From an uncultured Oscillospiraceae bacterium (lineage in GTDB: Bacteria; Bacillota; Clostridia; Oscillospirales; Oscillospiraceae), in contig CANQMW010000015.1 of assembly GCA_947625045.1 (NCBI GenBank), positions 1,429-65,428 of the forward strand: 64,000 nucleotides of DNA, written 5' to 3'. Positions 25,464-54,450 of this stretch are shown here, in pieces; the stretch's first letter is position 1, and each line of letters opens with the position of its first letter. The notes below the pieces were generated by a model that saw only the letters and a list, made by a program, of their open reading frames with translations, made no database searches and had not been told where the DNA came from. The translations under genes were made by a program, and so were the position numbers.

Positions 25464-25472
25464 AGCCGTCTC

Positions 25473-26555: not shown

Positions 26556-26594
26556 CCATGAACACCTGCCTTGCTATAATGTCGTATCGCTTTC

Positions 26595-27143: not shown

Positions 27144-27221
27144 TCTCCCTTCCTCATCTTGGTTTGCCGCATCCCGCAGCCCCGCTTATTGAATTCTTGC
27201 CGAGGGGCAGCCGGGGCTTGT

Positions 27222-37364: not shown

Positions 37365-37928
37365 TCAGCTCTCCCAGCCGTGTTCCGTCTGCTCCGCGTC
37401 CAGCTGCTCCTGCATGAGCCGCTGTACGGTCTTCTCCATCAGCTCGGCACGGGTGGTCTCATACAGCTTTTGCAGCGCACGAGCGCTTGTCACGCCGCCG
37501 TCTATGCCCGCGGCCCTGCTCACGGCCTTTATCTGCTCCCGGACCGTCGACAAGCCCGTGATCGCGCCCGTTTTTCCCACAAATATGGCCCCGCTGGAAA
37601 CGCCGTTCCGCCGGGCATAGGCCAAAAGCTCCTCCCGCAGACTCTCCGGCAGATGGATGACCCGCTCCGCTGTCCTGATCTCGCCGGAATTGACCTCCTC
37701 CACCGTCAGCGCCAAAAGCTCCTGCGGCCGGATGCCCGCAGAGACCGTCGCCCGCATAGCGAGATAGGCCAGTACTTTGCGCATCCTCCTCGCCGTCTTC
37801 AAAAGCGCAAGATACTGATCCCGCGTGAGCTCGTTTTGCTCCGGCGCCTGCGCGTCGGCCGGTTTCTGAAGTCTTTCCCTGGAAAGGCGCCTTGCCGTTT
37901 GCTTTTGTACCTGAAGTATCTCCTGCAT
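37365..37928 (-). CDS. Integrase-fold protein lacking the HxxR box and the Tyr-bearing C-terminal segment (single module)
   Basis: Start MQEILQ at 37928, with GGGAGG 7 nt upstream. LTRDQYLALLKTA...SAGIRPQELLALTVEEV matches box I of tyrosine recombinases. The HxLRH position reads SARALQK, and the protein ends in LMQEQLDAEQTEHGWES with no LGH...Y segment. Confidence 0.6.
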   Translation of the reverse strand: MQEILQVQKQTARRLSRERLQKPADAQAPEQNELTRDQYLALLKTARRMRKVLAYLAMRATVSAGIRPQELLALTVEEVNSGEIRTAERVIHLPESLREELLAYARRNGVSSGAIFVGKTGAITGLSTVREQIKAVSRAAGIDGGVTSARALQKLYETTRAELMEKTVQRLMQEQLDAEQTEHGWES

Positions 37929-37930
37929 CC

Positions 37931-39430
37931 TCAAACCTCCCAGCCCGCTGTGAGCTGCTCCTGCTCCGCCTGCCGGTCCATCGTCTGCTCCACCAGCAGG
38001 GCAAAATTGGCCTCCACCGCCGCTTTCGTGGACTTATAAAGCCGCCGCAGACACTGGGGATTGCACTTCTCGCCGGGCAGTCCCGCCTCCTCGCCCAGTT
38101 TCGCGATGGACTGCACGATGCCAGCACGGCACATGGGCCTGTTCTGGTTCGACAAAAAGATGGGCCCCGCGCCGATGTCCTGCCGCTCCGCGTAGGCCAG
38201 AAGCTCCCGGCACAGACACCCGGGCAGATGCAGCATGCTGCGCGTGCCGCTGGAGACCACCGTCATGCCGCCGGCCTTCGCCGCCTCCACCGTCACCTTA
38301 TCCAGCTGCTGCACCGGCAGGTCGCAGGAGGCGAACAGCTTCACCAGCAGATACTCCCGCTCCTTGTCCAGCCGCTTCGCCGTTTGCAGCAGCTGTAAAT
38401 ATTCGTTCCGGGTCAGCTCCGGCTGGGGGTTGTCCTCCTGCTTTGGCAGTTCCGAAAGCTGATACTCCCGGTGGCCCATATAGTCCAGAAACCCATTCGC
38501 CACGATGGCAAAGCCGTTGATCGTGTTGGGGGCATAGCCTTTTTCCCGCAGCAATTCGACCCACTGGGCAAGGGTCCCCCGGCGGATACGCTTATCCGCC
38601 GGCAGATCCTGATAGAACTGCTTCAGAATGCCGCTGTACTGCTGGGGAGCAGATATACGTCCTTTGGCTTGCAGCCCGGCCATGTATCCCTCAATGTCCT
38701 CGTGGGTCATCCGGACGCCGGGATCATCTATGACTGCCCCGCGCTCGGTCTTTTGCGCCGGAAGCGGTTTCCCGCGCCGTTTTGGGAGAACAGGCAGGCG
38801 CTCGGCCTCCGCCTGCCGATCCATGAGCTGTACCGCCATATCGACGGCCCGGGCCTCCGCATCCGCCTGCCGGTTCATGAGCCGTTCCACCATGCCGGGA
38901 GCCTGAGCCTCCGCATCCGCCTGCCGGGCCATGAGTCGTTCCACTGTATCGGCGGCCCGGGCCTCCGCGTCCGCCTGCCGATTCATGATCTGTTCCATCA
39001 TATCGGCAGCCCGGGCCTCCGCATCCGCCTTCGCGGCCCGATACAGCTTCCGCAGCGCGCTGGGACGGCACTTCTCTTCGTCCAGCTCTGCCGAACAGCA
39101 TAGGTTATGCAGGAACCTGGATACCTGCGTCGCGTTGTAAGGCCGCCCGCTTCGCGTGATGAACACAGGTCCGGACCGGACGCTCTTCCACGCGGCATAC
39201 TCCTCCAGTTCCTCCCGCAGGCCCGCTGCCAGCGGCACCACGTCATGTTCCACTTTCAGCTTGCCCGCCCGGACGGCTTCCACCGTCAGCTCCGGCAATC
39301 CCAGTATGGACACGCCGGTGGTCGCCATCACCTTCACCAGCAGGTAAGCACGCTCATCATTCGATCCCTTTGCCGTGTCCAGAAGATGCAGATACTCCTC
39401 CCGGGTGATATCCGCGCCCACAGTCCACAT
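37931..39430 (-). CDS. Integrase-fold protein with two nucleophile-less modules, a SAM-like N-domain insert and an 18-aa repeat linker
   Basis: Start MWTVGADITREEY at 39430, with GGAGAAAGGAGA upstream. The modules start at ITREEYLHLLDTAK and LTRNEYLQLLQTAK. The middle has an integrase N-terminal-like segment (HEDIEGYMAGLQAKG...NTINGFAIVANGFLDYM). The HxxR positions read SALRK and QCLRR, and no catalytic Tyr helix is present. Confidence 0.6.
   Translation of the reverse strand: MWTVGADITREEYLHLLDTAKGSNDERAYLLVKVMATTGVSILGLPELTVEAVRAGKLKVEHDVVPLAAGLREELEEYAAWKSVRSGPVFITRSGRPYNATQVSRFLHNLCCSAELDEEKCRPSALRKLYRAAKADAEARAADMMEQIMNRQADAEARAADTVERLMARQADAEAQAPGMVERLMNRQADAEARAVDMAVQLMDRQAEAERLPVLPKRRGKPLPAQKTERGAVIDDPGVRMTHEDIEGYMAGLQAKGRISAPQQYSGILKQFYQDLPADKRIRRGTLAQWVELLREKGYAPNTINGFAIVANGFLDYMGHREYQLSELPKQEDNPQPELTRNEYLQLLQTAKRLDKEREYLLVKLFASCDLPVQQLDKVTVEAAKAGGMTVVSSGTRSMLHLPGCLCRELLAYAERQDIGAGPIFLSNQNRPMCRAGIVQSIAKLGEEAGLPGEKCNPQCLRRLYKSTKAAVEANFALLVEQTMDRQAEQEQLTAGWEV
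38798..39031 (-). repeat. 54-bp in-frame tandem repeat, about 4.3 copies (18-aa unit, consensus like hhERLMNRQADAEARAxD)
   Basis: Read directly in both DNA and protein: MMEQIMNRQADAEARAAD / TVERLMARQADAEAQAPG / MVERLMNRQADAEARAVD / MAVQLMDRQAEAE. Confidence 0.85.
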
Positions 39431-39513
39431 CTTCTTGGATCTCCTTTCTCCGCCCGCGGAAGGATAGGTCAGAATTGCACTACCGTTCCCCATGACAGAG
39501 GTCTGACCCCTCC

Positions 39514-39553
39514 AAAATGAAAAACCATCCTGCATGTGGACCATGCAGGATGG
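39514..39553 (-). terminator. Rho-independent terminator (minus strand)
   Basis: Perfect 12-bp stem CCATCCTGCATG-TGGAC-CATGCAGGATGG, followed on the minus strand by TTTTTCATTTT. Confidence 0.8.
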
Positions 39554-39575
39554 AAAAATGAGACGCCATGGGTAT

Positions 39576-39613
39576 AGAAAAGCAGGCCGTTGAAGGGCAT
39601 TGTTTCAACGGCC
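39576..39613 (-). terminator. Rho-independent terminator (minus strand), first of two in tandem after the recombinase gene
   Basis: 10-bp stem GGCCGTTGAA...TTCAACGGCC, followed on the minus strand by TGCTTTTCT. Confidence 0.65.
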
Positions 39614-39782
39614 TCAATGCGTATGCCAAGTTTGCTTGATTTGGATGTTTTTTACCGCCGTATACAGAGCATACCACTTGATTAATCTGTAGGGATGTGG
39701 TAATATTCTCTCAACTGTTAGGGCGGATTATCAGATATAATTATAATGTTTGTCGCTTAAGTGCAATTTTGTTGATGCTTCG

Positions 39783-40622
39783 CTAACTGACAAGTCCCAG
39801 CCGCTCCAGCGTCCTGGCATGCTCCGCACCGGTGGTGATGAGGTATATCCGCGTGGTGTTGATGGATGAGTGCCCCAGCACGTCCGCCAGCTTTACGATA
39901 TCGTGACAGGCCCGGTAGAACGTAGTGGCAAACAGGTGCCGCAGGTTGTGGGGAAACACCTTCCCCGGCTCCACCCCCGCCAGCGCGCACACCGCCTTCA
40001 TCTCCGCCCATATCTGCCGCCGGCTCAGACTCTTCCCGCTTCTGGTGAGAAATATCTCGCCGGAGGCGATTTTTCGTTTCCGGGCATATTTCAGCAGCTT
40101 CCGGCATAGCTTCCCCGGCAGCATGATGGTCCGTATCTTCCCCTTCAGCGCTATCTCCGCCCGGCCCATCTGAGCCGCCTCCACCGTTATGTACCGTACC
40201 TCGGAGACACGGATGCCTGTTCCGCATATGGTCTCCATGAGCAGGGCAAGCCTGGGTCTTCCGCTGTCTCGGGCCGCTGTCACCAGCTTTTCATATTCCG
40301 CCTTGGTGAGGTCCTTTCCCGGATCCCGGAAGGCCCGGCGCTGGAGGCGCAGGGCCCTGACGCAGCAGTCCTGCCGGCCGCAGAACTTAAAGAACGCGTT
40401 CACCGCCGCCACCTTCACGTTCACTGTGGCCGGCGTATAGTCCTGGGTGAGCAGATGTTCCTTCCAGGCCACAGCGGCCTCCTTCGTCACCTCACGGCCG
40501 GCCAGCCAGGCCATGAACTCCCCTATGATCCGCACATACATCTTCACCGTGGCCGGCGCCCGCTCCTCTTCCGCCAAAAAGCAAGTAAACTCTTTGACCC
40601 GTCTCTCTGTGATGGTGTGCAT
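39783..40622 (-). CDS. Tyrosine site-specific recombinase (XerC/XerD-like), apparently catalytically intact
   Basis: Start MHTITERRVKEF. TGIRVSE (Arg), KGK, PHNLRHLF (HxxR) and LGHSSINTTRIYL (His/Tyr) are all present. Confidence 0.85.
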   Translation of the reverse strand: MHTITERRVKEFTCFLAEEERAPATVKMYVRIIGEFMAWLAGREVTKEAAVAWKEHLLTQDYTPATVNVKVAAVNAFFKFCGRQDCCVRALRLQRRAFRDPGKDLTKAEYEKLVTAARDSGRPRLALLMETICGTGIRVSEVRYITVEAAQMGRAEIALKGKIRTIMLPGKLCRKLLKYARKRKIASGEIFLTRSGKSLSRRQIWAEMKAVCALAGVEPGKVFPHNLRHLFATTFYRACHDIVKLADVLGHSSINTTRIYLITTGAEHARTLERLGLVS

Positions 40623-40802
40623 ACCAACACCCCCGTTTCTTGTAGTAGCTCTCATTTTACACAAGCCGGGGGCACTTTCCCAAGCCCATCTCACGGGGAC
40701 AACCATCAAAATCGCCGAAATTCCGGCCCATTAAACCGAAAAATCGTCCATCCATAATCCATATTTTCCCTTATCCTCTTATGTGCAAAGGGGGAGGATC
40801 AT

Positions 40803-41613: not shown

Positions 41614-41687
41614 CGAAATGGCCGCGAGACCGTTTTGGACAGCCGATCCTCTGCCTGTCAATGCAGCGGAAAGGAGTAGAAACGAAA

Positions 41688-41948
41688 ATGGCTAAGAATT
41701 CCAATCAGCTTGTGAACCCCAATGCCCGTGACGCGATGGACCGCTTTAAGATGGAAGCCGCCACCGAGGTGGGCGTCAACCTGAAGCAGGGCTACAACGG
41801 CGACCTGACCAGCAAGCAGGCCGGTTCCGTCGGCGGCCAGATGGTCAAAAAGATGTGTCCCGTACGAACTGTGAAATTTAGGAGGAACGACAGAAATGCG
41901 ATGGGGCATGAAGTGGAGATAAAGTACATAACAGGGATCACGATTTAG
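41688..41948 (+). CDS. Alpha/beta-type small acid-soluble spore protein (SASP)-like protein with a non-canonical C-terminus
   Basis: RBS AAAGGAG. NPNARDAMDRFKMEAATEVGVNL...TSKQAGSVGGQMVKKM matches both SASP signature blocks. After MVKKM the sequence (CPVRTVKFRRNDRN...) no longer resembles SASPs. Confidence 0.6.
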   Translation: MAKNSNQLVNPNARDAMDRFKMEAATEVGVNLKQGYNGDLTSKQAGSVGGQMVKKMCPVRTVKFRRNDRNAMGHEVEIKYITGITI

Positions 41949-41960
41949 GAGGGCTTTGAG

Positions 41961-42206
41961 ATGCGAAAACTGGTCAAGTGTGCGTTCAATATGGACACTG
42001 CCTGCGTGGAACTGCGCTTCTCTGATGGCAGCCGGATCGACATCGACACCGTTGGCGTGGAGAACGAGATTGCCGACAATCTGTATCAGCGCAGCGATCT
42101 GGACTGGCTGATCGATAACAAGCCGCTGGAATACGCCAGGCTCGTCCTTGGAGGCAAGTTGGAGGGATATGTACAAGGGACAGCGGAACATAGGTTGGAA
42201 GATTGA
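41961..42206 (+). CDS. Small conserved hypothetical protein, MGE-associated type
   Basis: 81 aa, RBS TAGGAGGG. From memory MRKLVKCAFNMDTACVELRFSDGS...NLYQRSDLDWLI resembles a small family common on clostridial elements. This is unverified. Confidence 0.5.
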   Translation: MRKLVKCAFNMDTACVELRFSDGSRIDIDTVGVENEIADNLYQRSDLDWLIDNKPLEYARLVLGGKLEGYVQGTAEHRLED

Positions 42207-42222
42207 GCAACGCAAAGAACAC

Positions 42223-42252
42223 GCCCTGCCAGTTGAGCTTGATTGGCAGGGC
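42223..42252. terminator. Hairpin between convergent genes; marks the left edge of the AT-richer cassette
   Basis: GCCCTGCCA-12 nt-TGGCAGGGC, followed by ATTGTTTC. Confidence 0.5.
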
Positions 42253-42273: not shown

Positions 42274-43239
42274 TCACTCAGTCCGTTCCGAATTTTGAAC
42301 GATTTGCTTTTTCATTTCGTCAACATCCGCCTCTGTCAAACTTGCGCGATAGTCAATGTGCTTTGGATTGATTTGCTCCGATAAATCATTTACATTGCAA
42401 CAATCATAGACCACATTTTGTACTCTAATTATTCTTTCTGGCTTTTTTTGCAGTTCTAAATCGTCCTGAGAAAAAATAACGAAGTTCATCCCCACATGAC
42501 TTTGGAAGCTCGGATACGATATCCCCTGAACTGAAGCATCTTTATCCCTAAGAGCATTAACCAAATATTGTGTTGGTAGATACTCCAAATCTGCGTCTCC
42601 TCTACGAATGGGACGCGAGAACTGGAATGACAACTCTCTTGCGGTTGCATTTAAGTAAATGTTTATATCCTCGTCATCTATGAGCATCGCCTTTAAGTCT
42701 TGCCCGGTGCGTGGTAACTTAATTATCTTAATTGGCGACGGGTTTACATACTCTACTACATTCACAAGCTCTAAGATTGACGGACGAACCTCCGAGACTG
42801 CTGTGTATATGTTATCTGTTACATATAAGTCGGGAATTCCCTTTGGACTGGCTCGGTTTGGACCGGCCTTCTCTACGGGTGGCACGCCAACATCAGAAGG
42901 ATCAGAATACCCTCTGATTAGGCTCTTTCTAGGTATCCAAACCGGCATTTTCTCATTATCATGTCCCAAATAATCTATGTGCTTTTGAACTGTTAATTTC
43001 CACCCTGGGATAATCCTTGCTCTATAGAATACCGATCCCACAGGAACTTCAACTGTGAAGTACTTTGCTAGCAAGTCCGTAACTTCATCAATGAACTCTC
43101 TGTCTTCCTTTCGGGGAATAAAACGTGCATTGTGAATCAGGTTATAACAAAACATGTTCCATCGATGATGGAAATATGTACTTTTTGCCGCAAATTCAAA
43201 GTTCTTCATTCTCTTTTTTAGTTCTTGCTCTTCCTTCAT
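42274..43239 (-). CDS. RES domain protein with helical N-terminal extension; no adjacent Xre/DUF2384-type antitoxin
   Basis: The R-E-S triad is in context: SVFYRARI, NRASPKGIPDLYVTDNIYTAVSEV and QGISYPS. The start is either ATG 43239 (RBS AGAGGAAG) or GTG 43266, which overlaps the hsdR stop (GTGA). Confidence 0.7.
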   Translation of the reverse strand: MKEEQELKKRMKNFEFAAKSTYFHHRWNMFCYNLIHNARFIPRKEDREFIDEVTDLLAKYFTVEVPVGSVFYRARIIPGWKLTVQKHIDYLGHDNEKMPVWIPRKSLIRGYSDPSDVGVPPVEKAGPNRASPKGIPDLYVTDNIYTAVSEVRPSILELVNVVEYVNPSPIKIIKLPRTGQDLKAMLIDDEDINIYLNATARELSFQFSRPIRRGDADLEYLPTQYLVNALRDKDASVQGISYPSFQSHVGMNFVIFSQDDLELQKKPERIIRVQNVVYDCCNVNDLSEQINPKHIDYRASLTEADVDEMKKQIVQNSERTE

Positions 43240-43262
43240 TTCATCTTCCTCTAAAGCAAAAA

Positions 43263-46232
43263 TCACTGCGCTTCTCTCAAGCTTTTATAAATCTCTTCCG
43301 TAAATATTCCCAGCACCTGGCGTTTGAGTTCCTCGTCACTCAGGAGCAGCGAGAAGAAATCCTGGTTTTGTGAGAGACCCTCAATCAGCGCGTCATCGAT
43401 GTCATCGAAATAGGAAAACTCAAAATCCTTAACGGTATTGCTCTTGGCGCTGGCCCGCAGTTTTTCCGACTTCAAGAGAATATCCCGTATCTGGAGCATC
43501 GCCTTGACCGCCACATCCGTGTCATAGGCCCTGCCGGTGCGGCTGTTTATCTCAGCAATAATTTCGGACAGGCGCTCTTCCTTTGCTTCTGTGAGGCCGA
43601 ATGTCTCCGCCGTCGGGAGTTTCACCACCGGCTGTGCGACGAGCTTCGGCTCGACGTGTTCCGCTTCTTTCTTCTGCACAAAGTTGGTTGCCCTGATTTT
43701 ACCGTCCAGATCATAGCCGCCGCCCGGATGCTTGATATTGATATACGCCAGCAGATATGTAATGAAATTGTACTTTTTATGCAGGTCAGTGTCTTCAAAA
43801 CAGGATACCTGCAGCAAAAACTCATAGAACCGAACAAAGTGCCGCAGCTGGGCAACGATCTCCTGCTGGGTAAGCGGCTCATATTGCTCGATCATGTTCT
43901 TTGCCCGTTTGAAATAGAACGTGAGTTTCTGCTTGTCCCTGGGCGTTATATTCGCCTTATAGAGCAGTCCGTTTGCCCTATCAATATCATCGGGATCGAG
44001 TACGGCATAGGCGTCGATCCTAGCTTCCAGATCATAGATCGCTGTCGGCGTTACGGAATTGGACAGCAACGTGGTCGTATAATACGGCGCAAAGGCAGTC
44101 TTGATTTCCTCATAGCTGTTCACAAAATCCAGCACAAAAGTCTTTTTCTCAAAGGGCGGACAGATACGGTTCAGCCTGGAGAGTGTCTGTACCGCCGACA
44201 CTCCTTTGAGTTTTTTCAGCACATACATCGCGCAGAGTTTCGGCTGGTCGAACCCGGTCTGATACTTGTTCGCTACCAGCAGAACCTGATACTCATTCTC
44301 GTCAAACTCTCTCGGAAGCCGATTCTCCGGGAACCCGTTCATGGACGCCTCGGTGTACTCCGTCTCGTCGTCCGGCAGGGTCACCTTGCCAGAGAATGCC
44401 ACCAGTGCCTTAATATCGGTATAACCCTTCTTCTTGGTGTAATCCTCAAAAGCCTGCCGGTACTTCACTGCTCCCTGCCGGGAGGCAGTTATCACCATGG
44501 CCTTTGCCATGCCGCCAAGTTCCGGCATTACCGTGGTACGGAAATGCTCAACTATGACTTCCACTCGCTGGGCGATATTTGTCTCATGCAGTTCTACGAA
44601 ACGTGCAATCTGCCGCTTGGCGTCCGATGTTTTGCAGCGAGGGTCCTCCTCGATCTCCTTGTTGATTTGATAAAAAGTCTTATACGTCGTGTAATTCTGG
44701 AGCACATCAAGTATAAAACCTTCCTCAATAGCCTGCTTCATAGAATAGATGTGGAAAGCCTCCCGCTGCCCCTTTTTGTTCAACCGACCGAAAAGCTGGA
44801 TAGTCGTAGGCTTAGGCGTGGCCGTGAAAGCGAACATGGACACGTTCGCCTGTTTGCCATTCCTGCGAATCTCATCGGTAATCATGTCCTCGACATCGCC
44901 GTAATCCGGTTCGCCAGCACCAAGAGACTTGGTTACGGCGGCCATATCCTTGCCAGCCGTGGAGGAGTGCGCCTCGTCAATGATCACAGCAAACCGTTTT
45001 TCTTTCAGCCCCTTTACGCTGTCCACAATATAGGGGAATTTCTGAATGGTGGTAGCGATGATCTTCGTGTTGCCATTGAGTGCATTCGCCAGATCGTTGG
45101 AATTACACTTGTCATCCATCACTCGAATCAGGCCAGCCTTGTGTTCCATGCCCATGATCGCCTTTTGCAGCTGCCGATCCACTACTACCCGGTCAGTGAC
45201 TATGATAATATTATCAAATATAATATGGTTGTTCGCGTCATGCAACGATGTCAATCGGTGCGCCAGCCAGGCGATGGAGTTGGTCTTGCCGGAACCGGCG
45301 CTGTGCTGGATCAGGTAATTCTGTGTGGTGCCGTTCGTGCGCACATCCGCCAGAAGCTGGCGGATAACGTCAAGCTGGTGGTAACGGGGGAATATGATGT
45401 TCTCCGACTTCTTCGTCTTGCCAGTCAGTTCGTCGCGGCTCTCGTTCGCGTCAATGAAGATGAACTTGCTGACAAGGTCGAGAATCGTATCCTTTTTCAG
45501 GATGTCCTCCCACATATAAGAGACGCTGTACTTATCCTCAAAAACAGGGTTGCCCGCACCGGCATTCACGCCCTCGTCGCGGCCCATGTTGAACGGCAGA
45601 AAGAATGTGGCATTTCCGGCCAGTTTGGTGGTCATATAGACCTGCTCAAGGTCCAGAGCGAAGCAGACAAGGCACCCAGCTTTAAAGCGGAACAAGCGGG
45701 TCCCAGGATCACGATCCGTGCGGAACTGATAAATCGCGTCCTGATAAGATTGCCCGGCGAGGTTGCATTTCAGTTCAAAGGACATAATGGCAAGGCCGTT
45801 GAGGAAGATTACAAGGTCGATGCGTTCCTCATCGCTTGCCCATACTTCCTCCATTACAGAGAATATATTCTTTTCGTACTTAGCCAACAGTTCCTTGTTG
45901 AAAGTGGTCGCCGGTTTTGTGTACATTAGTTCCAACTGCATATTGGAGATCTCGACGCCATGCTTCAATATATCCAGCAGACTGCCGTGCGCCTTCGTCG
46001 CCTCAGCATTGATGAAGCTGACGATTGTTTCCTCCAAATCGGCCTTGTATATCTTCCGCAGGGCGTCCATCGTCTCTGCCTGGGTATCCCATAGGAACCG
46101 AAACAGCATCTCCCGGTCCATGGCGAAGCGATGGTCATAGTCCGTTTGGCTGCGGATGATATATCCATTATCCTGGGAGAGGCGCTCCATTATGTAGTGC
46201 TGATATTCTTTTTCGGATAGGATGTAATTCAT
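43263..46232 (-). CDS. hsdR: Type I restriction enzyme R subunit
   Basis: 989 aa. N-terminal PD-(D/E)xK (IDLVIFLNGLAIMSFELK), SF2 helicase motifs (QHSAGSGKT, VIIDEAHSS) and a C-terminal helical domain are present. Confidence 0.9.
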   Translation of the reverse strand: MNYILSEKEYQHYIMERLSQDNGYIIRSQTDYDHRFAMDREMLFRFLWDTQAETMDALRKIYKADLEETIVSFINAEATKAHGSLLDILKHGVEISNMQLELMYTKPATTFNKELLAKYEKNIFSVMEEVWASDEERIDLVIFLNGLAIMSFELKCNLAGQSYQDAIYQFRTDRDPGTRLFRFKAGCLVCFALDLEQVYMTTKLAGNATFFLPFNMGRDEGVNAGAGNPVFEDKYSVSYMWEDILKKDTILDLVSKFIFIDANESRDELTGKTKKSENIIFPRYHQLDVIRQLLADVRTNGTTQNYLIQHSAGSGKTNSIAWLAHRLTSLHDANNHIIFDNIIIVTDRVVVDRQLQKAIMGMEHKAGLIRVMDDKCNSNDLANALNGNTKIIATTIQKFPYIVDSVKGLKEKRFAVIIDEAHSSTAGKDMAAVTKSLGAGEPDYGDVEDMITDEIRRNGKQANVSMFAFTATPKPTTIQLFGRLNKKGQREAFHIYSMKQAIEEGFILDVLQNYTTYKTFYQINKEIEEDPRCKTSDAKRQIARFVELHETNIAQRVEVIVEHFRTTVMPELGGMAKAMVITASRQGAVKYRQAFEDYTKKKGYTDIKALVAFSGKVTLPDDETEYTEASMNGFPENRLPREFDENEYQVLLVANKYQTGFDQPKLCAMYVLKKLKGVSAVQTLSRLNRICPPFEKKTFVLDFVNSYEEIKTAFAPYYTTTLLSNSVTPTAIYDLEARIDAYAVLDPDDIDRANGLLYKANITPRDKQKLTFYFKRAKNMIEQYEPLTQQEIVAQLRHFVRFYEFLLQVSCFEDTDLHKKYNFITYLLAYINIKHPGGGYDLDGKIRATNFVQKKEAEHVEPKLVAQPVVKLPTAETFGLTEAKEERLSEIIAEINSRTGRAYDTDVAVKAMLQIRDILLKSEKLRASAKSNTVKDFEFSYFDDIDDALIEGLSQNQDFFSLLLSDEELKRQVLGIFTEEIYKSLREAQ

Positions 46233-46275
46233 AATCCGTACCCCTTCTCATATGTTACGCTATGTTCAAAATAAA

Positions 46276-47316
46276 TTATTGATCTCTAAGCCTCTTAATT
46301 AGTTGCCTTGCAAAGAGAATTGCGATTTGGTCACAGGTATAATCGTTGGATTTTATGCCTTGGATATCCACTATGGATGGATAGTGGTTCTGTAAGTCTG
46401 TTCTTGTAATGTTATGCAGTATTGGCAATATCACCTTTTGCCCATTCTTGTTCTGTCTTCCAAGAAACTCTGTCAGTTCGCGCTCAGTCCATTCCCTTCC
46501 GAAGAAGTTTTCAGATATTACGATAATAGCAAACTCGGACTTCTCTGTCCCCTCAAGTATGCGCTCCTTCCAGTTATCTCCCCATTCGAGCGATTCTTTG
46601 TCATAAAAAATCTTAATGTCAAGCATATTCAAAGATTGATACAGTTTATCAACTAGTTCAACCTTATCTTTACTAGCATGAGAAATGAAAACGTCATATT
46701 TACTCAACTGCATTCCTATATTATCAGATGCAAGGTTTTCTTGATTAATATGTTTACGTTTTCTATATTCTGTGTCACCACATATACTCTCCAAGACAGA
46801 GACCAAATCATTATAAGTACTCAATTTACGATGAAACAAAATGGATTCAATTCGTTTTGCAAGAGGATGATCCGTCAAATACCTATGGTAGAATATTTCA
46901 AAATCATTGATCCAAATATTACTTGGACGGTTGTATTCGTTCATATCAGTGCCAATCGGAGCAGCATTAATCGGAGAATTAATCATCTTGGTTCTGTGAA
47001 GAAGTTCAAACAGTTCCCTCTCAAAAGGGGAAAAATGAGCTTCCGTTTTCAATTTATCTAATTCAGCCCTGTAAATGCGTTCTTCATATGTATAACCATC
47101 TTTCAGGACTTGAATGTGATATGGAATATCATCGGCCCAAAGCACGGAAATTAGGTTATTATTCTTTAGTTCTCCAAAACAGCCACGTACAATTATTTCT
47201 TCCTTATATTGCATTTTTTCAAATCGTTTCCGCCAATAGTCCGGCTCCGTCTCATGCTCTATTATTTCTGCAAGAAGTTTTCTTGCCTCGTCTGAGATAT
47301 ACGTAGCCTCTTTCAT
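46276..47316 (-). CDS. TIR-domain protein with an unassigned ~200-aa N-terminal domain
   Basis: The C-terminal region is YDVFISHASKDKVELVDKLYQSLNMLDIKIFYDKESLEWGDNW...FAIIVISENFFGREWTERELTEF, matching the TIR beta-A/BB-loop/alpha-C pattern. The ATG overlaps the hsdS stop (ATGA). Confidence 0.75.
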   Translation of the reverse strand: MKEATYISDEARKLLAEIIEHETEPDYWRKRFEKMQYKEEIIVRGCFGELKNNNLISVLWADDIPYHIQVLKDGYTYEERIYRAELDKLKTEAHFSPFERELFELLHRTKMINSPINAAPIGTDMNEYNRPSNIWINDFEIFYHRYLTDHPLAKRIESILFHRKLSTYNDLVSVLESICGDTEYRKRKHINQENLASDNIGMQLSKYDVFISHASKDKVELVDKLYQSLNMLDIKIFYDKESLEWGDNWKERILEGTEKSEFAIIVISENFFGREWTERELTEFLGRQNKNGQKVILPILHNITRTDLQNHYPSIVDIQGIKSNDYTCDQIAILFARQLIKRLRDQ

Positions 47317-47969
47317 TGCTCAATTCCCTTCTTCCCTGTGACACATTCAAAAACAATAGACTGTCTATATTTCTCAAGAGCATCAAGTTGTCTCTGCAAA
47401 CTAGATGATAATTCCGCAATCTTACTACAACGACTATCTAAAAAGTCAGCTATTGATTCTTGCTCGTCTAAGGGGGGATAAGGAATGTATGTATTTCCAA
47501 AATCTTCAAAAGCAATGTTTTTCCCATCACGTAAACTCATAGTATGAGAATTCATTTCACTAATAAAACACTTGTCCTTAAACAGGTACTTGTAGAATCG
47601 ATCACAGATCTGTCGAACCGGATAAAACACCTGATAAGCAGGTGAAACTACACCTTCATATTTTGAGTACTCAAAGCCACCTTGAAAACTTCTAAGGCTA
47701 ATACAAAAATCGCCTTTATGAATTGTTTTGAAGGCCGAGAGGTCTGTGTCATCTTTCACTTTAACGACATTAGCACTTGTCAGTTCTTCAAGTAATGCCT
47801 GCGGAATAACGCCAAAATGTTGTGTTGGCGAAAGAAGCTGCAATTCAATATTATTTCCCTTTTCATTTCGCTGAGTAAATATGTACTTTCCTTTGTAGAA
47901 TTCCCAATAGTCAGGGACTTCACCAAGCCACTCAGCAAGAGGATTAACTGTCAGTGCCATAATCATCAC
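47313..47969 (-). CDS. hsdS: Type I R-M specificity subunit, half-size (single target-recognition domain)
   Basis: About 215 aa with one TRD plus a conserved helix (PPLDEQESIADFLDSRCSKIAEL...IVFECVTGKKGI). The best-spaced start is ATG 47960, 8 nt after AAGGAG. Confidence 0.8.
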   Translation of the reverse strand: MMIMALTVNPLAEWLGEVPDYWEFYKGKYIFTQRNEKGNNIELQLLSPTQHFGVIPQALLEELTSANVVKVKDDTDLSAFKTIHKGDFCISLRSFQGGFEYSKYEGVVSPAYQVFYPVRQICDRFYKYLFKDKCFISEMNSHTMSLRDGKNIAFEDFGNTYIPYPPLDEQESIADFLDSRCSKIAELSSSLQRQLDALEKYRQSIVFECVTGKKGIEQ

Positions 47970-47981
47970 TCCTTATACGCC

Positions 47982-50084
47982 TTATACGAACAAATCCCTT
48001 GTCTGCATTATTATATCTTGTGCTAAACTCTCAAGTTCATTTTTTAAGAGATCACTGTTCTCTGGGAATTTAGGTTTATAAAATTTCCGGGTAAAAATAA
48101 TTTCGGCTCCCGTTTTAATAATTTGATTCTTTGCCGTTAAGTTTTCCTCAAAGAAAGCTGCTGCATCAGGGATATATGGAAGTACTTCCCGACGCATATA
48201 GGTCTCTATATCGATCTTTACTGGAACTTTCTCCGTATCTTTCGATTCTTTGTCATATAATGTATATCCTTTTCGATCACGCTGTATCTCAGCCCGCTTG
48301 TCCATCGCGGAAAGCCCATCCGCAATTTTTTCAAGCAGCTTCTTATCGCTTGTTACCTGTGTAAGGGCAGCCGTCAGCACCGGCATAAAGGCAGCCGGAG
48401 AATAGTAGATGCTCTCGGAAACTGCATCCTGCAACGCGGCAAGGATAGCATCATAAACCGATTTGTTGTCTTGGTACTTCTCCAGTTTTCTCTGATTCTT
48501 TCCGGACAGTTCCTCGACGTTTTCCAATTCACTGACCTTCGCTTCGTCATAAAGCGAAGACAGTGACCCTTTTGAGAGCATGGAAGCAATGCGCCCTTCT
48601 GTGATAGCATAGCTACGCTGGAGAGGCTGCATCACCGTGTACTCTCGATAGATGAACTCCTCATTGTCATAGATTTTACAGTATTCATTCTCTACAAAAT
48701 TAGCATATAGTTTAGTAATGACAGAACGATCCATAGGGGTAATTTCATTTTTCTTGTCGCCAAGTCCACGTCTCAACTTGTGAAAACAGGACGACGCATC
48801 AATCAATTGTATCTTTCCTTTGCGTTCCTTTCGCTTGTTTTTTGAAAGAACCCAAATATATGTTGCTATTCCCGTATTGTAGAACAAATCACTTGGTAGC
48901 TGTATTATTGATTCAATAAAATCGTTTTCCAAAAACCATTTTCTTATCTGGCTCTCACCAGAAGACGCTCCACCGGTAAACAGCGGGCTACTGTTCTCTA
49001 TTATGGCGGCGCGGCCAAATTCATCGTCCATTTTGTCGATAGCGGATTGCAGAAACAGCATCTGCATATCGCCCGCACTGGGCAACCCTGCGCCCCAACG
49101 ACCAGAAAAACCCTTCTGATGCTCAGCCCTAACCGCTTCCTCTACGCCGTCGGCAGCATCGCTGCCGCCCCACGCCTGTCCAAACGGCGGGTTCTCCAGA
49201 ACAAAGCGCATTTTGGTGTCTTTGAATCGGTCTGCAACCATAGTGTCCTGATAACAAATTCTATCTGCACTCTGCCCCTTAATGAGCATCTCCGCCAAAC
49301 ACATAGCATAAGATTCAGGATTGTTTTCCTGCCCAAATAGGCGCACGTCGGCGGTCGGATTATATCGCTTTATAAAGTTATATCCTGTGGACAGCATGCC
49401 GCCCGTGCCGCAAGCCTGATCCAAGATGGTAATGACCTTACCATCGTCAAAAATGTCGTCACAGCCCTCGGCCAGCAGGATGTTGACCATCAGTTTGATG
49501 ATGTCGCGGCCGGTGTAGTGGTCGCCAGCTTCGGCGTTTTCAGAGAACTTCCGGATCAGTTCCTCAAAGATATACCCCATCTTTACGTTGTCGATGGTGC
49601 GCGGATCTAAATCCAATTCAGAGAATGCTTTCACGACAGATAGCAGACGGTTGTTCTTGTCCATCTTGTCGATCTCTTCACCAAAGTTCAGTCCTCGCTC
49701 CTTAGACAACAATATTTCCAGCACATTGGCAGAGAACCCTTCCAGGTAGCTTTTGAAGTTAGCGGCAATATGATCCGCATCGTTCACAAGCTCGGCAAGG
49801 TCATACTCGCTGGTATTGTAGAACGGGAAGCCGGAAACACGGTACATTGCCTTTGCCGGGTAATTTGGATTGGCCTTATACTGAGCCACGACAGCCTGCT
49901 TTGTCGGCGCAAGGGCACACTCGAACCGTCGAATGATCGTCATAGGGATGATGACGTCCTTATACTTGTCGCTCCGGTACGGCCCGCGCAGTTTGTTGGC
50001 GATGGACCAGATGAAGTTTACCTCGGTAGAGACATCTATGGGAGAATCATCCCACATCGCGTCAATGATTTTTCTGTCAGCCAT
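47982..50084 (-). CDS. hsdM: Type I R-M DNA methyltransferase subunit (N6-adenine), long form
   Basis: 700 aa. LDQACGTGGML (motif I) and VLENPPFGQAWGG (motif IV, NPPF) are present. The HsdM N-domain includes IWSIANKLRG. A ~200-aa C-terminal extension follows. Confidence 0.9.
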   Translation of the reverse strand: MADRKIIDAMWDDSPIDVSTEVNFIWSIANKLRGPYRSDKYKDVIIPMTIIRRFECALAPTKQAVVAQYKANPNYPAKAMYRVSGFPFYNTSEYDLAELVNDADHIAANFKSYLEGFSANVLEILLSKERGLNFGEEIDKMDKNNRLLSVVKAFSELDLDPRTIDNVKMGYIFEELIRKFSENAEAGDHYTGRDIIKLMVNILLAEGCDDIFDDGKVITILDQACGTGGMLSTGYNFIKRYNPTADVRLFGQENNPESYAMCLAEMLIKGQSADRICYQDTMVADRFKDTKMRFVLENPPFGQAWGGSDAADGVEEAVRAEHQKGFSGRWGAGLPSAGDMQMLFLQSAIDKMDDEFGRAAIIENSSPLFTGGASSGESQIRKWFLENDFIESIIQLPSDLFYNTGIATYIWVLSKNKRKERKGKIQLIDASSCFHKLRRGLGDKKNEITPMDRSVITKLYANFVENEYCKIYDNEEFIYREYTVMQPLQRSYAITEGRIASMLSKGSLSSLYDEAKVSELENVEELSGKNQRKLEKYQDNKSVYDAILAALQDAVSESIYYSPAAFMPVLTAALTQVTSDKKLLEKIADGLSAMDKRAEIQRDRKGYTLYDKESKDTEKVPVKIDIETYMRREVLPYIPDAAAFFEENLTAKNQIIKTGAEIIFTRKFYKPKFPENSDLLKNELESLAQDIIMQTRDLFV

Positions 50085-50193
50085 TACTTTGTCCTCTTTT
50101 TATTCTTACAGTATCAAGATTAATCATTGCAACCCCAATCAGCCTGTCCACCTGCTTACCATGACCATGTGGGTGTTCAAAACAAAGAATCAG

Positions 50194-51204
50194 TCAAAAG
50201 GGGAGAGCTTCCTCCTCGTCTGGTTCGTCATCTCCTTCGAGGCCAAGCAACTGTCTTGCGCGAAGAAGGAGTTGATCATAAGTCATAATATGAAGCTGGT
50301 GATATGAGGCATTAAGTATTCTCAACGCTTTTGATTTGTCCTCTCCCCAGTCGTTTGATCGTCCATACACAAGTAAGCATTGCGGTTTAACCGTCTTTGT
50401 GCCTCCAACGCGCTCTAAGAACTCGACTGAATTCGACTGAAGTTCAATCTTATATAAATAGTTTAGACACTGCATTATTGCACCTGAGAGTGTTGCCGAT
50501 GGACAATAGTTACCGTGTGAATCGGGACCAACCCAGAAAGGAATCGTTGGTTTTTTTATCTCTACAACATCCAAAAAACCGTCGAGTGAACGCATAAGAT
50601 AGTCCGCAATATCATCAACATCAATATCTCTTTCCGGAAGTATATTTAGGAACTCAGATCCCAGAATCCATTTATTATGCTCAAACCATTCCTGCCAATA
50701 TGATTCAGGGTAGTTTTGCTCAATGGCATTCCTGAACTCTTGTATGGCATAGTTTCTTCTTGCAGCCGTAATTGCAACACTCAGGTTTTCGGTAAGTACG
50801 CCCGATTCCAACAGCTTGTCCACTACTTCGTCATCTGAAATCCCAAGTTCGCGTACTTTGGAGAATAACTTTGCTGCATCCTCATCAGCTGCAATGAATT
50901 CGGTCATTCCCACATTCAACGGCACATAATAATCCTGAATATAGTCAATCAAATTATCTAGCTCAGGTGTTGTAAGTGTAATCGATTTATCAACTTTCTC
51001 TTTGAATCCTTCAGCGATTTTACTCATTCTTGCAATTTTCAGAGATACGATTTTCTCCCCTGTTGAGTTGTGCGTATTTCTAAAAAACACAGCCCGGCAA
51101 GAACTTCTCACTCCGGAACTCAATTCTTTTGCTTCAACATATTCTTGCCCACTCCTAGATGTTTTAACTATTTTCCACTCCTGCATAACAACTCTCTCTT
51201 TCAA
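50194..51204 (-). CDS. Shedu-like DUF4263 (PD-(D/E)xK nuclease) defence protein
   Basis: The C-terminal half is WQEWFEHNKWILGSEF...DGFLDVVEIKKP...QCLNYLY...PQCLLVYGRS...IMTYDQLL, which follows the SduA/DUF4263 layout. The start is either TTG 51204 or ATG 51186. Confidence 0.65.
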   Translation of the reverse strand: MKERVVMQEWKIVKTSRSGQEYVEAKELSSGVRSSCRAVFFRNTHNSTGEKIVSLKIARMSKIAEGFKEKVDKSITLTTPELDNLIDYIQDYYVPLNVGMTEFIAADEDAAKLFSKVRELGISDDEVVDKLLESGVLTENLSVAITAARRNYAIQEFRNAIEQNYPESYWQEWFEHNKWILGSEFLNILPERDIDVDDIADYLMRSLDGFLDVVEIKKPTIPFWVGPDSHGNYCPSATLSGAIMQCLNYLYKIELQSNSVEFLERVGGTKTVKPQCLLVYGRSNDWGEDKSKALRILNASYHQLHIMTYDQLLLRARQLLGLEGDDEPDEEEALPF

Positions 51205-51259: not shown

Positions 51260-52609
51260 CTATAACCTTTGTTTCTTCAACCCCACCCCGATCAATCTGT
51301 CCGCCTGATCCGCCATAAACAACGGGATATTCAGCACGTCATCGTCCAGCTTCAGGTTGTCCAGAGAAAACCGAATACGGAGCTTAACTTCCTCCGGGAA
51401 CAGTTCCTTGAACTTCCGCAGGCTTCGGCTGGCGGTATTGGCCTCGGACTTGACCTCCACCGGGAAAATGTCGTTCTCCCGTTGGATCAGGAAATCCACC
51501 TCATATGGCGGGTTGGTCTGGCTCCAATAGCGGGGCATGACCTCGAACTGGGTGATGAGCGTTTGCAGCACATAGTTTTCCGTCAGCGCGCCTTTAAACT
51601 CCGTGAACAAGCGGTTCCCCTCGCCAAAGGCGGTCGGCGCCAGCTGTGCCAGCCGCCGCAAGACGCCCACATCCGCCAGGTAGATCTTGAACGCGGACAA
51701 ATCATCATAGGCCGACACGGGCAGCCGTGGCGCGGAACTGCGGTAGACCTTATGCACCAAGCGGGCGTCCACCAGCCATTGCAGGGCGTCTTCGTACTCC
51801 CTGGCCCGGGCCCCCTCCTTCACGACCTTGTAGATGAACTTTTTATTCTCGCGCGCAAGCTGCGAGGGAATGGACTTCCATACCATGGATATTTTCGGGA
51901 ATTCTTTCACGTCCGGGTGCTTGCCGAAATCCCGCTCATAGGCCCCGATGATGTTGGACAGCGCCTCCTGCATGGCCTCCACGTCCCGCTCCTGGGTCCA
52001 CATAGCCACCGGCTCCGGCATGCCGCCCGTGACGTAATACATCTTCAACCGCTCATAAAGCGGGTTGAAAAAGGCGTCCGGTATCGGCTCAATGGCATCC
52101 ACGCGGTCCATATACTCCACAAGATTCCCGTCCCCGTTGGCCAGCAGAAATTCTGTGAACGTCATGGGGTCGATCTGCATGAAGTTGACCTTGCCCACCG
52201 GGAAGGAGGCCGGCTTCGCCAGCGCGATGCCCAGCAGGGACCCGGCGCAGGCGACGTGATACTGCGGCGCGTTCTCACAAAAATACTTCATGGAATTGAT
52301 GACCTTCGGGCAGTCCTGCACCTCGTCGAAGATGATCAGGGTCTTCTCCGGGACGATTTTCTGCCCGCTGGCCAGCATCAAATTTTGCAGGATGCGCTCC
52401 ACGTCCTTGGTGGTCTCGAAAAACTGCTTATATTCCTCGTTCTCGTCAAAGTTGAAGTAGGCAGTGTTGTCATAGTACCGCCGCCCGAACTCTTTGAGCA
52501 CCCAGGTCTTGCCCACTTGCCGTACGCCTTTCAGGATCAGCGGCTTGCGGTGCTTGGAATTTTTCCACTTCAACAGGTCATTTAAGATCGATCGCTCCAC
52601 AAAAGACAC
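51260..52609 (-). CDS. AAA-type ATPase with DUF4143-like C-terminal domain
   Basis: GTG start. ILKGVRQVGKTW (Walker A) and LIIFDEVQ (Walker B) are present. The architecture is typical of the AAA_14/DUF4143 ATP-binding proteins. Confidence 0.7.
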   Translation of the reverse strand: MSFVERSILNDLLKWKNSKHRKPLILKGVRQVGKTWVLKEFGRRYYDNTAYFNFDENEEYKQFFETTKDVERILQNLMLASGQKIVPEKTLIIFDEVQDCPKVINSMKYFCENAPQYHVACAGSLLGIALAKPASFPVGKVNFMQIDPMTFTEFLLANGDGNLVEYMDRVDAIEPIPDAFFNPLYERLKMYYVTGGMPEPVAMWTQERDVEAMQEALSNIIGAYERDFGKHPDVKEFPKISMVWKSIPSQLARENKKFIYKVVKEGARAREYEDALQWLVDARLVHKVYRSSAPRLPVSAYDDLSAFKIYLADVGVLRRLAQLAPTAFGEGNRLFTEFKGALTENYVLQTLITQFEVMPRYWSQTNPPYEVDFLIQRENDIFPVEVKSEANTASRSLRKFKELFPEEVKLRIRFSLDNLKLDDDVLNIPLFMADQADRLIGVGLKKQRL

Positions 52610-52980: not shown

Positions 52981-54450
52981 TCAACGTTCTCTTTTGTCAT
53001 TTTGTCTTTCCTGCTCGATTATCGGCTGGCCGCGCTGATCCAGCGCTACATTGACGTGGTGCCGGACCTGCAGCAGCTTCGTGAGATCATCCCGCAGGGG
53101 CTTGTACTTGGCGTAGGCCGCCTCATGCTCCCGCGCCAGCCTTTCCATCTCCCGCTGCCAAGCGGAGATGGGCAGCTTGCCGTCCGGCGTGAGGACATCC
53201 TTCAACTTGCGCCTGGTCATATAGAACAGCCGCAGCTCGCGTTCATGCTCCTGTCTGTATTTCTCCCGCTGGCCCTTCCAGCGGATGCTGTTCATCTCGT
53301 CAAAGACAGGCTTTAGCCGGGCGTAGTTCTCCGCCTGCTGGAGCAGGTCCTTCAGCTCCTTCTGGCGTTTGTTGGAATCATCAAGCTCCGCCTTCAGCGC
53401 GGCGACCTGACCGCTGATGAAATCGACCCGCTCCGTCAGCGCCTCCACCGTGAACAGTTTGTTCTCCATGATGTAGTTATAGGCTTCCACAAACTGCTTC
53501 AGATTGCCCAGCTTTGCCTTCTGGCTCCACGCTCCGGCGTTTCTCATGGCAATGTAATCGCCCAGAAGCTGGCCCAGGTTGGGCTGCTGGGGCTGGGACA
53601 GCTCACGTCTGACATCTTTCAGCCAGTCCAGCAACATGGTGATCTTCTTCCGCAGGCTGCGGATGGCCGCGTTGGCAGAGCGAATCCAGCGGTTGAGATC
53701 GCCCTTGTCGGTAGGGATGCCCTTTGCCTCCATCTGGCGGACGGCGGGACCCTCATGGACCGTCGGTATCTGGTCGATGCCTTGACGTTCATAGGAGCGG
53801 TGGTCTATCCGGCAGTCCAGGCCCTTTTCCTCAAACTTGGCGTTGCACAGCGCGGCCCACGCCTCCCGCCAGGATCCCAGCCGCTCCGGGCTGCCCCAAT
53901 CAGTGGTAGGCACAGCGTCAAAGGTCGCCTTGCCGTTCTCGTCAAGAATGCGGTCGCCGTTCTCGTCCAAGTGATACACGCGGCGCTGCTTGTATCCCCA
54001 CTTCCCGTTCTCTTTCAACGGCCGGATTGGACAGAGGATGTGGAAGTGGGGATTTTGTATCTCTTTGTCCGGCTTATGGATGGAGAAGTCTGCGATCATA
54101 CCCCGGCTGACAAGCTGCTCCGATACAAATTGCCTTGCAAGAGCGATGTTCTCCTCCAGGGAAAACTCGTTCTGCAAGGCAACGTCAAAGCTGTATGCAA
54201 GCTGGGCGTCTTTGTTCCGCTCTGCCTGCTCCAAGGCGTTCCATAGGGTCTGCCGGTCCGCGTATTCCAGCGGCGCATTTGTCGGGAGAAGTATCTCGGA
54301 ACAGATCACGCCTTTCTTGTGGCTGTAATCGCTGGTCTCGCCGTAGTATTCGCTGTAAAGTTTCTCTCCGGCGCGGTAGGCGGCGGAAGCGATGGCGGAC
54401 TGACCGGCGCTGCGCTGGATCTGGGTGACGTGGAAATGATAGAGGACCAT
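52981..54450 (-). CDS. MobA/MobL-family (MOBQ-type) relaxase
   Basis: The N-terminus MVLYHFHVTQIQRSAGQSAIASAAYRAGEKL and the HxH-type block (NPHFHIL) are present, followed by a coiled-coil C-terminus. Confidence 0.85.
   Translation of the reverse strand: MVLYHFHVTQIQRSAGQSAIASAAYRAGEKLYSEYYGETSDYSHKKGVICSEILLPTNAPLEYADRQTLWNALEQAERNKDAQLAYSFDVALQNEFSLEENIALARQFVSEQLVSRGMIADFSIHKPDKEIQNPHFHILCPIRPLKENGKWGYKQRRVYHLDENGDRILDENGKATFDAVPTTDWGSPERLGSWREAWAALCNAKFEEKGLDCRIDHRSYERQGIDQIPTVHEGPAVRQMEAKGIPTDKGDLNRWIRSANAAIRSLRKKITMLLDWLKDVRRELSQPQQPNLGQLLGDYIAMRNAGAWSQKAKLGNLKQFVEAYNYIMENKLFTVEALTERVDFISGQVAALKAELDDSNKRQKELKDLLQQAENYARLKPVFDEMNSIRWKGQREKYRQEHERELRLFYMTRRKLKDVLTPDGKLPISAWQREMERLAREHEAAYAKYKPLRDDLTKLLQVRHHVNVALDQRGQPIIEQERQNDKRER

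Follow-up and report, generated by a model that had tools for sequence, protein, structure and literature searches.

A TIR-domain gene recurrently embedded in type I restriction-modification operons of gut Clostridia, and an unrelated RES gene that follows it in one mobile defence island

The hsdM-hsdS-TIR-hsdR-RES gene row

The window analysed here is a stretch of 64 000 nt from an uncultured Oscillospiraceae bacterium (GenBank assembly GCA_947625045.1, contig CANQMW010000015.1), and our subject is a row of five co-oriented open reading frames (ORFs) on its minus strand, at 42274-50084. In their reading direction these encode, according to Pfam, PADLOC and, for the winged helix, a structure model, the methyltransferase subunit HsdM and a half-size specificity subunit HsdS of a type I restriction-modification (R-M) system, a protein made up of a winged helix-turn-helix (wHTH), a helical part and a TIR domain, the restriction subunit HsdR, and a RES-domain protein. 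An earlier note, made from the sequence alone, had described the row as an R-M system interleaved with two NAD+-linked effectors. Its five ORFs lie where it placed them and belong to the families it named, with three amendments: HsdS is a half protein with one target-recognition domain (TRD), the TIR domain is the C-terminal part of its protein, and the RES gene probably starts further in. The five genes do not, however, make up an 'interleaved NAD+ system'; the real unit is a four-gene hsd-TIR module, found widely in gut Clostridia, as yet uncharacterised and catalogued only in an indirect way.

Judged by their domain content, hsdM, the half-size hsdS and hsdR constitute a type I R-M system of the ordinary kind, for which sequence-specific methylation and ATP-dependent restriction are predicted. 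HsdM (47982-50084, minus strand, 700 aa) has the N6-adenine methyltransferase domain together with HsdM_N (Pfam N6_Mtase 1.3e-56, HsdM_N 1.7e-21; PADLOC MTase_I PDLC03029 8.8e-230), and HsdR (43263-46232, minus strand, 989 aa) has the N-terminal nuclease and the superfamily 2 (SF2) translocase (Pfam HSDR_N, ResIII, SWI2_SNF2 and T1R_D3-like; PADLOC REase_I 3.7e-32); its match to TIGR00348 (4.6e-58) stays under the curated cut-off of that model. The deviating subunit is HsdS (47313-47969, minus strand, 218 aa; gene callers give 215 aa). Instead of two TRDs with conserved helices between them, Pfam (Methylase_S 1.6e-10) and PADLOC (Specificity_I 5.4e-49) recognise a single one, which aligns to positions 232-430 of the 436 in the PADLOC model, i.e. 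to its C-terminal half. In homologous loci HsdS measures ~415-435 aa, whereas the short length is identical in every copy of the island described here. Truncated HsdS proteins that work as homodimers are known, and the half HsdS presumably works in the same way; if it is functional, a homodimer would be expected to recognise a palindromic site.

The genes are tightly packed, as the earlier note had stated: hsdM and hsdS are 12 nt apart, hsdS and the TIR gene share 4 nt at their stop and start, and 43 nt lie between the TIR gene and hsdR. Only for the hsdR/RES junction does an overlap (4 nt, with a start at GTG 43266) probably give way to a gap of 23 nt, with a start at ATG 43239 (MKEEQ), 27 nt further in. 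The latter is the most likely start, because it is preceded by AGAGGAAG, because the homologues begin at the aligned position, and because gene callers give the shorter protein on a contig that is 99.99% identical. The note had also seen no internal terminator, and this is borne out: terminator-like matches in the region number 11, with 11.3 expected from shuffled sequence, and the sole strong hairpin (42223-42252; 13 stem pairs, 7 of them G-C) is found just 3' of RES, between its stop codon and that of a convergent DUF6061 gene, where it is likely to act as a bidirectional terminator. At the other end, a weak promoter-like site (TGGACA, 16 nt, AATGAT, with a TG extension; 50123-50150, minus strand) was picked up by a consensus scan alone in the 109-nt gap upstream of hsdM. 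The G/C content of the genes is a mosaic, with 37.7% in hsdS, 36.9% in the TIR gene, 46% in hsdM, 51% in hsdR and 41% in RES. A long antisense ORF runs through hsdR (43656-45929, plus strand, 757 aa) and another through the PDC-S01 gene further upstream (51269-52585, plus strand, 438 aa); we assume that both merely mirror the sense genes and do not code for protein.

Architecture of the TIR protein

The embedded TIR protein (46276-47316, minus strand, 346 aa) is composed of three parts. In AlphaFold2 models, residues 9-70 (47107-47292) form a winged-helix-like module in the order helix-helix-helix-strand-strand, with a predicted local distance difference test (pLDDT) score of ~90, and residues 72-197 (46726-47103) form a helical bundle; a separate model of this N-terminal domain reached a pLDDT of 87.8. 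Residues 206-345 (46282-46701) are the TIR domain in these models. While the whole of residues 1-197 has no Pfam match (nothing meaningful even at E<=10), the TIR domain is readily recognised by Pfam (TIR_2 1e-19) and by two PADLOC models, PDC-S66 (2e-43) and ThsB (2.5e-23), both of which are restricted to this domain. The alignment with PDC-S66 covers model positions 138-274 of 282 only, and the same applies to two variants of the family with 252 and 415 aa, which share the helical bundle and in which the winged helix is absent or replaced.

Among solved structures, Foldseek places the TIR domain with BtTir, PdTIR, TcpB and AbTir (E 7e-10 to 1e-7; template modelling score, normalised to the target, ~0.8; 31-36% identity). 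With phmmer it matches 'NAD(+) hydrolase AbTIR' at 3e-25, WTEREL standing opposite WTNYEL, and the residue of AbTir aligned with E280 (codon checked at 46477-46479) is what we take to be its catalytic E208. Both E280 and W276 of this W-x3-E motif are invariant, the former across 27 sequences. The domain is thus AbTir/BtTir-like and, to go by its sequence, a predicted NAD+ hydrolase (NADase) that keeps the catalytic Glu. AbTir and BtTir have been reported to make isomers of cyclic ADP-ribose (cADPR).

A profile search with the N-terminal domain retrieved 368 representative proteins and revealed that its two modules, winged-helix (positions 3-90) and helical (88-190), are also found apart from each other. 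Most of the 43 matches that we scanned (~230 aa or more) carry TIR_2/TIR; CAP12/Pycsar-type TIR is present in six, HEPN-Ymh in two and an ABC ATPase in one. One protein, P0372, combines two copies of the winged-helix module with a CAP12/Pycsar-type TIR and matches the PADLOC candidate PDC-S35, as do the wHTH + CAP12-TIR relatives (~1e-75). Its gene is located between the N6_N4 methylase and ResIII/RE_endonuc genes of a type III-like R-M cluster (L114, L115, 6002-12277), in which SNF2, DUF4391, AbiH, AbiJ_NTD4 and Fic genes are present as well. P0274, a protein with the same N-terminal domain and a CAP12-type TIR, is encoded on a contig of 1.4 kb, where its flanks are not hsd genes. From their PDC names, PDC-S66 and PDC-S35 are taken to be among the 145 'guilt-by-embedding' candidates of Payne et al. 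2024; two genome surveys mention PDC-S66.

The TIR gene is a recurrent, optional insert of one hsd clade

Homologues of the TIR protein fall into 1553 protein clusters, mostly full-length and with 54-71% identity. To determine their genomic context we used 8 loci from reference genomes and 80 that were kept of 451 confirmed metagenome loci, counting a locus as informative if at least 1.5 kb was available on both sides (n=75) and locating homologues of the window Hsd proteins by phmmer. In 72 of the 75 informative loci the TIR gene stands directly upstream of hsdR: 67 have the order hsdS-TIR-hsdR, and another 5 have hsdM followed by TIR-hsdR with an HsdS that was not recognised. The close contact with hsdS is typical, too, since in 60 of the 67 loci the TIR gene begins either before the end of hsdS or at most 20 nt from it. 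The TIR proteins of the surveyed loci form 33 clusters at 90% identity, with Ruminococcus, Oscillospiraceae, Lachnospiraceae, Roseburia and Ruminiclostridium as hosts. Pairwise comparison gave a Spearman correlation of 0.35-0.38 between TIR identity and HsdR or HsdM identity, and of 0.37 between HsdR and HsdM themselves; HsdS is hypervariable, as expected. Three loci lie outside hsd operons, one of them a fragment and the others the same different mobile element seen twice (L034, L035). A plasmid-database tblastn search with the TIR protein returned only unrelated TIR-domain proteins, mainly DUF1883-TIR proteins of Enterobacteriaceae.

The reverse question, how often such hsd operons contain the TIR gene, was addressed with an unbiased HsdR-seeded sample from IMG/VR, comprising 21 close operons (58-90% HsdR identity) and 31 distant ones. 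The TIR gene is present in 3 of the 21 close operons and in none of the 31 distant ones. Operons without it reach 88% HsdR identity, and there hsdS abuts hsdR. We had considered the TIR protein as an integral subunit of this hsd family; its presence in only 3 of 21 close operons led us to reject this. The TIR gene is a recurrent, optional insert of one hsd clade.

No conserved third gene accompanies it in the TIR-seeded loci, where the surrounding slots hold varied genes: the position after hsdR is taken by an EVE-AAA_5 McrB-like gene, by GmrSD or by an OLD-family gene, and other inserts in the same operons are small membrane proteins (between hsdM and hsdS), a Zn-ribbon protein and GmrSD. Two further observations concern these operons. 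An ORF of 142-149 aa, absent from the window, abuts the hsdR start in 22 operons of the clade, with or without TIR (e.g. L076 4089-4538, L052 9106-9549, L129 6462-6890); it has no Pfam or PADLOC match. Loci with the 415-aa TIR variant (L022-L025; e.g. L022 3986-18408) are crowded with inserts and encode, in this order, GmrSD, HsdM, an unknown 275-aa protein, HsdS, TIR, a 434-aa membrane protein, HsdR, an OLD-family ATPase-TOPRIM protein and a UvrD-like helicase.

The RES gene is a mobile cassette

The RES-domain protein (42274-43239, minus strand) has 321 aa, or 330 aa if read from GTG 43266, and matches Pfam RES at residues 132-271 (1.5e-10). R138, E159 and S253 are invariant in 25 homologues, and the FYRAR and YLPTQY motifs are kept. 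To this domain ~75 extra N-terminal and ~55 extra C-terminal residues are added. The protein matches no PADLOC or NCBIfam model; by sequence it has no real match to solved structures, those of RES toxins included; its N-terminus has no Pfam match at E<=10; and Pfam recognises no SLOG, Macro, SAVED or other known nucleotide-sensor domain in it. Distant RES homologues (27-33% identity) possess Pfam HEPN_RES_NTD1 (PF18870) and an N-terminal Zn ribbon, and they align with the window protein through the region preceding RES. An adjacent Xre (COG5642) antitoxin gene is missing, hsdR being the upstream gene here, and the other clade members are likewise without one.

Close relatives of the RES protein (41-69% identity) were found in eight independent settings, this island counted. 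In three of them RES directly adjoins R-M genes of three types: it follows hsdR in the window, a type IIG R-M enzyme with an S subunit in L013 (6973-10990; from the same metagenome-assembled genome (MAG) as L001, a copy of the island), and a HindVP restriction endonuclease, a C5 methylase and Vsr in L118 (207-4024). The RES paralogues of L013 and L118 show 60% identity. In the other five there is no adjacent R-M system; RES stands after the SIR2 candidate PDC-S25 and a 73-aa ORF, beside RelB/ParE, alone among housekeeping genes, and in two separate conjugative-element contexts. With eight contexts, the adjacency to R-M genes in three cannot be separated from ordinary clustering in defence islands. 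More distant ORFs of the RES family are also encountered ~4 kb downstream of hsdR in L100 and L129. A gene pair, DUF6061 with SASP, flanks both RES loci of the organism (41661-42206, plus strand, in the window; L013 5726-6200) and is 78% identical between them at the nucleotide level. In L013 the pair lies upstream of the type IIG genes; in the window, where the DUF6061 gene (41961-42206, plus strand) and the SASP gene were mapped from contig L106, it converges on RES.

A TIR gene neighbours RES in none of the eight settings, and the window RES appears in none of the TIR-seeded loci except near-identical copies of this island. RES is a mobile single-gene cassette, unrelated to the TIR unit, that moves among R-M tails, defence islands and conjugative elements; its own function would be that of an independent, self-regulated toxin-type defence or addiction gene. 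The earlier note had argued that two inserts from NAD+-linked families are hardly there by chance. For the TIR gene its embedding in 72 of 75 loci agrees with this, but RES is absent from the other TIR loci, and the argument from the two families is weak because the sampled neighbouring loci are full of SIR2 and TIR genes.

The surrounding mobile element

The island is carried by an integrative mobilisable element (37365-58487), delimited with Pfam, the gene table of contig L106 and a drop in G/C content to 38-52%, compared with a window background of ~60%. One end is marked by a serine recombinase (56748-58487, plus strand) and the other by three tyrosine-recombinase genes (37365-40709, minus strand); a MobA/MobL relaxase gene (52981-54450, minus strand) lies within. 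L106 is 99.99% identical to window positions 36276-57316, and contigs of rabbit-gut assemblies, one of them from an uncultured Oscillospiraceae MAG, share the element at 95.7-100% identity. Directly upstream of hsdM, on the same strand and outside the hsd unit, are a Shedu SduA gene (50194-51204; Pfam SduA_C 1.7e-24, PADLOC SduA 3.1e-121) and a gene for an AAA_14/DUF4143 ATPase (51260-52609; Pfam), which is the PADLOC candidate PDC-S01 (4.4e-184). The element thus carries at least four defence modules within 10 kb, and the region is best read as a defence island, assembled from separable cassettes, that this element carries as cargo in an Oscillospiraceae-like bacterium of the rabbit gut. Beyond the element, 21794-37364 holds cell-envelope genes on the minus strand (YfhO, two Glyphos_transf, an IspD-like cytidylyltransferase and a GT4 glycosyltransferase), with a sharp dip in G/C content to 44% at 34-35 kb.

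Proposed function and alternative explanations

We regard it as probable, if by no means settled, that the row combines an ordinary type I R-M system, an optional TIR protein serving as a PrrC-like back-up effector and an independent RES cassette. By analogy with PrrC in the EcoprrI locus, the TIR protein would be a second-line abortive-infection effector that stays latent while the R-M system functions. A phage that evades or inhibits restriction, or one that is sensed directly via the N-terminal module, would trigger it; the TIR domains would then oligomerise and hydrolyse NAD+, and the infected cell would be halted. The N-terminal modules would set the trigger, and of the two possibilities we prefer loss of the R-M complex, as for PrrC, to direct sensing of a phage component. 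RES, with its two extensions and with the Arg, Glu and Ser of its domain intact, would just happen to be the last gene of the transcription unit. We take the TIR protein as an effector rather than a signal generator because the operons have no conserved partner able to read a TIR-made nucleotide. Its dependence on the R-M system is favoured by the tight overlap with hsdS and by its confinement to one hsd clade. The earlier note had proposed a layered unit of restriction and abortive infection in which the R-M complex guards TIR and RES alike. This is plausible for the TIR protein (72 of 75 loci, 33 clusters), as an optional partner (3 of 21 operons), but not for RES, which is outside the conserved unit.

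Several points weigh against this picture. The winged-helix module is also attached to a different TIR subfamily in the type III-like R-M cluster and to HEPN in a phage-like context, and such reuse argues that it senses something besides a specific Hsd subunit. A full-length TIR homologue lies away from any hsd operon on the mobile element of L034 and L035, which also encodes a C5 methylase and a MobL relaxase. A Foldseek search of the PDB with the N-terminal domain found nothing below E 0.1, the weak look-alikes being winged helices of MarR, GntR and ORC alone. That a TIR-Hsd complex keeps the effector in check is suggested by the gene arrangement, and that the five genes form one transcript is suggested by their spacing. 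Finally, the TIR protein could still be a signaller whose receptor is encoded elsewhere, given that AbTir-like TIRs are able to make cADPR isomers.

The alternative that survives best, less probable in our view and still to be taken seriously, is that the TIR protein is an autonomous single-gene sensor-effector of the PDC-S66 type, whose N-terminal module detects a phage component and for which embedding among hsd genes means co-transfer or co-expression only. The homologue of L034 and L035 fits this well, as do the same hsd backbone without TIR at up to 88% HsdR identity and the use of the wHTH module with CAP12-type TIR and with HEPN; Payne et al. 2024, moreover, treat most embedded genes as self-contained systems (bioRxiv 10.1101/2024.01.29.577857). 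Against it, 96% of the loci are embedded, all in one hsd clade and with the TIR start placed over the hsdS stop, which is tighter than is usual for neighbours in an island, and TIR diverges together with HsdR and HsdM to the same degree as these two subunits do with each other.

In the opposite direction, one might extend the back-up role to a whole class, a suggestion that we make tentatively and consider rather doubtful. The wHTH-TIR proteins would then be restriction guards placed between modification/specificity and restriction genes of type I and type III-like systems, sensing failure or inhibition of restriction and answering by NAD+ depletion, with the RES clade as a second, looser back-up trailing R-M genes. 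Triggers might be, e.g., DNA-mimic anti-restriction proteins acting on the winged helix, or unrestricted foreign DNA, and the wHTH-TIR proteins would be the NADase counterpart of PrrC, widespread in gut Clostridia.

That all five genes are a designed unit, in which this R-M complex restrains both TIR and RES, appears improbable. It would account for the 23 nt between hsdR and RES, for the hairpin that follows RES with no terminator before it, for RES-clade genes directly 3' of three R-M types (type I; IIG in L013; HindVP/C5-methylase/Vsr in L118) and for the distant RES-family ORFs past hsdR in L100 and L129. Yet all other TIR-hsd loci are without RES and have different genes after hsdR, five of the eight RES contexts have no adjacent R-M genes, and three R-M types without structural relationship are unlikely to offer the same protein a docking site. 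We give almost no credence to the Thoeris-like pair of the earlier note, in which TIR would sense infection and, through a signal of the cADPR type, switch on RES as the substitute for ThsA: the ThsB match of the TIR domain, its closest solved relatives AbTir and BtTir and the apparent common transcription unit speak for it, but the context surveys seeded from TIR (75 loci) and from RES (8 contexts) led us to reject it, as the two genes occur together nowhere but in this island and copies nearly identical to it (the outcome that the note had itself set against the idea), RES has none of the nucleotide-sensor domains looked for, and the two genes differ in G/C content and have hsdR between them.

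If the TIR protein is indeed a back-up for restriction, PrrC, the only well-understood suicide effector guarded by an R-M system, would be joined by one that depletes NAD+, in abundant Clostridia of the human and animal gut. With 1553 protein clusters and 451 confirmed metagenome loci, the family is a large one. Such a back-up would also be a defined, compact system in which to study the activation of bacterial TIR enzymes: it has four genes and a single catalytic Glu, and operons with and without TIR exist in nature at 88% HsdR identity. A negative lesson is that adjacent NAD+-linked genes in a defence island do not amount to a signalling pair without a test of their conservation.

Comparison with known systems

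The RES protein resembles the toxins of Xre-RES pairs (MbcTA, ParST, the Pseudomonas putida pair) in the conserved Arg, Glu and Ser of its RES domain. The chemistry of the RES family is phosphorolysis or degradation of NAD+, or ADP-ribosylation. The window protein differs from these toxins in being about twice their size, with N- and C-terminal extensions, and in having no upstream Xre/COG5642 antitoxin. A second comparison is with the RES architecture fused to HEPN/RES-NTD1 (PF18870), described by Anantharaman et al. 2013 (PMC3710099), who also report R-M-linked HEPN effectors. Distant homologues with PF18870 align with the window RES, the pre-RES region included; the window protein, in contrast, is without the Zn ribbon and has no N-terminal Pfam match, and its clade adds a Cys-containing C-terminal extension.

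The TIR protein shares with Thoeris a ThsB-type TIR domain, a likeness at the domain level only. Neither the window operon nor the examined TIR-seeded loci contain ThsA (a SIR2 or transmembrane effector with a SLOG/Macro sensor), and there is no conserved two-gene pairing, so that two of the three defining features of Thoeris fail. With AbTir, BtTir, TcpB and PdTIR it has in common the TIR fold, the W-x3-E motif and a helical region ahead of a C-terminal TIR domain. Unlike the window protein, these are stand-alone or virulence-associated rather than embedded in R-M operons, and their N-terminus is a coiled coil in place of a winged helix and bundle.

As independent defence modules inserted among hsd genes, DarTG2, which is found between hsdS and hsdR (PMC12255303), and TgvAB, embedded in a type I R-M operon (PMC11411939), are comparable in position, and both are experimentally defensive. 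They differ in being two-gene modules and in their chemistry, i.e. DNA ADP-ribosylation and type IV restriction. Also comparable are PDC-S66 and PDC-S35, single-gene TIR candidates that were proposed from their embedding in BREX, DISARM or type I R-M; since the N-terminal half of the PDC-S66 model is left unmatched by the window protein, the sensor part differs.

The paradigm of a back-up is PrrC, a suicide effector embedded in a type I R-M system (bioRxiv 10.1101/2024.01.29.577857; PMC3710099). The EcoprrI locus (prrA-D) and the module described here agree in the position of the effector gene between hsdS and hsdR, in near-exclusive embedding and in the effector being optional for the R-M system. 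PrrC is, however, a tRNA anticodon nuclease composed of ABC-ATPase and HEPN parts, whereas wHTH, helical bundle and TIR make up the protein of the window; binding to the R-M complex and activation by an anti-restriction factor are features of PrrC that the TIR protein of the window would share only by analogy. Taken together, PrrC in EcoprrI is the closest functional analogue of the embedded TIR protein, and PDC-S66, by a partial model match, the closest catalogued entity.

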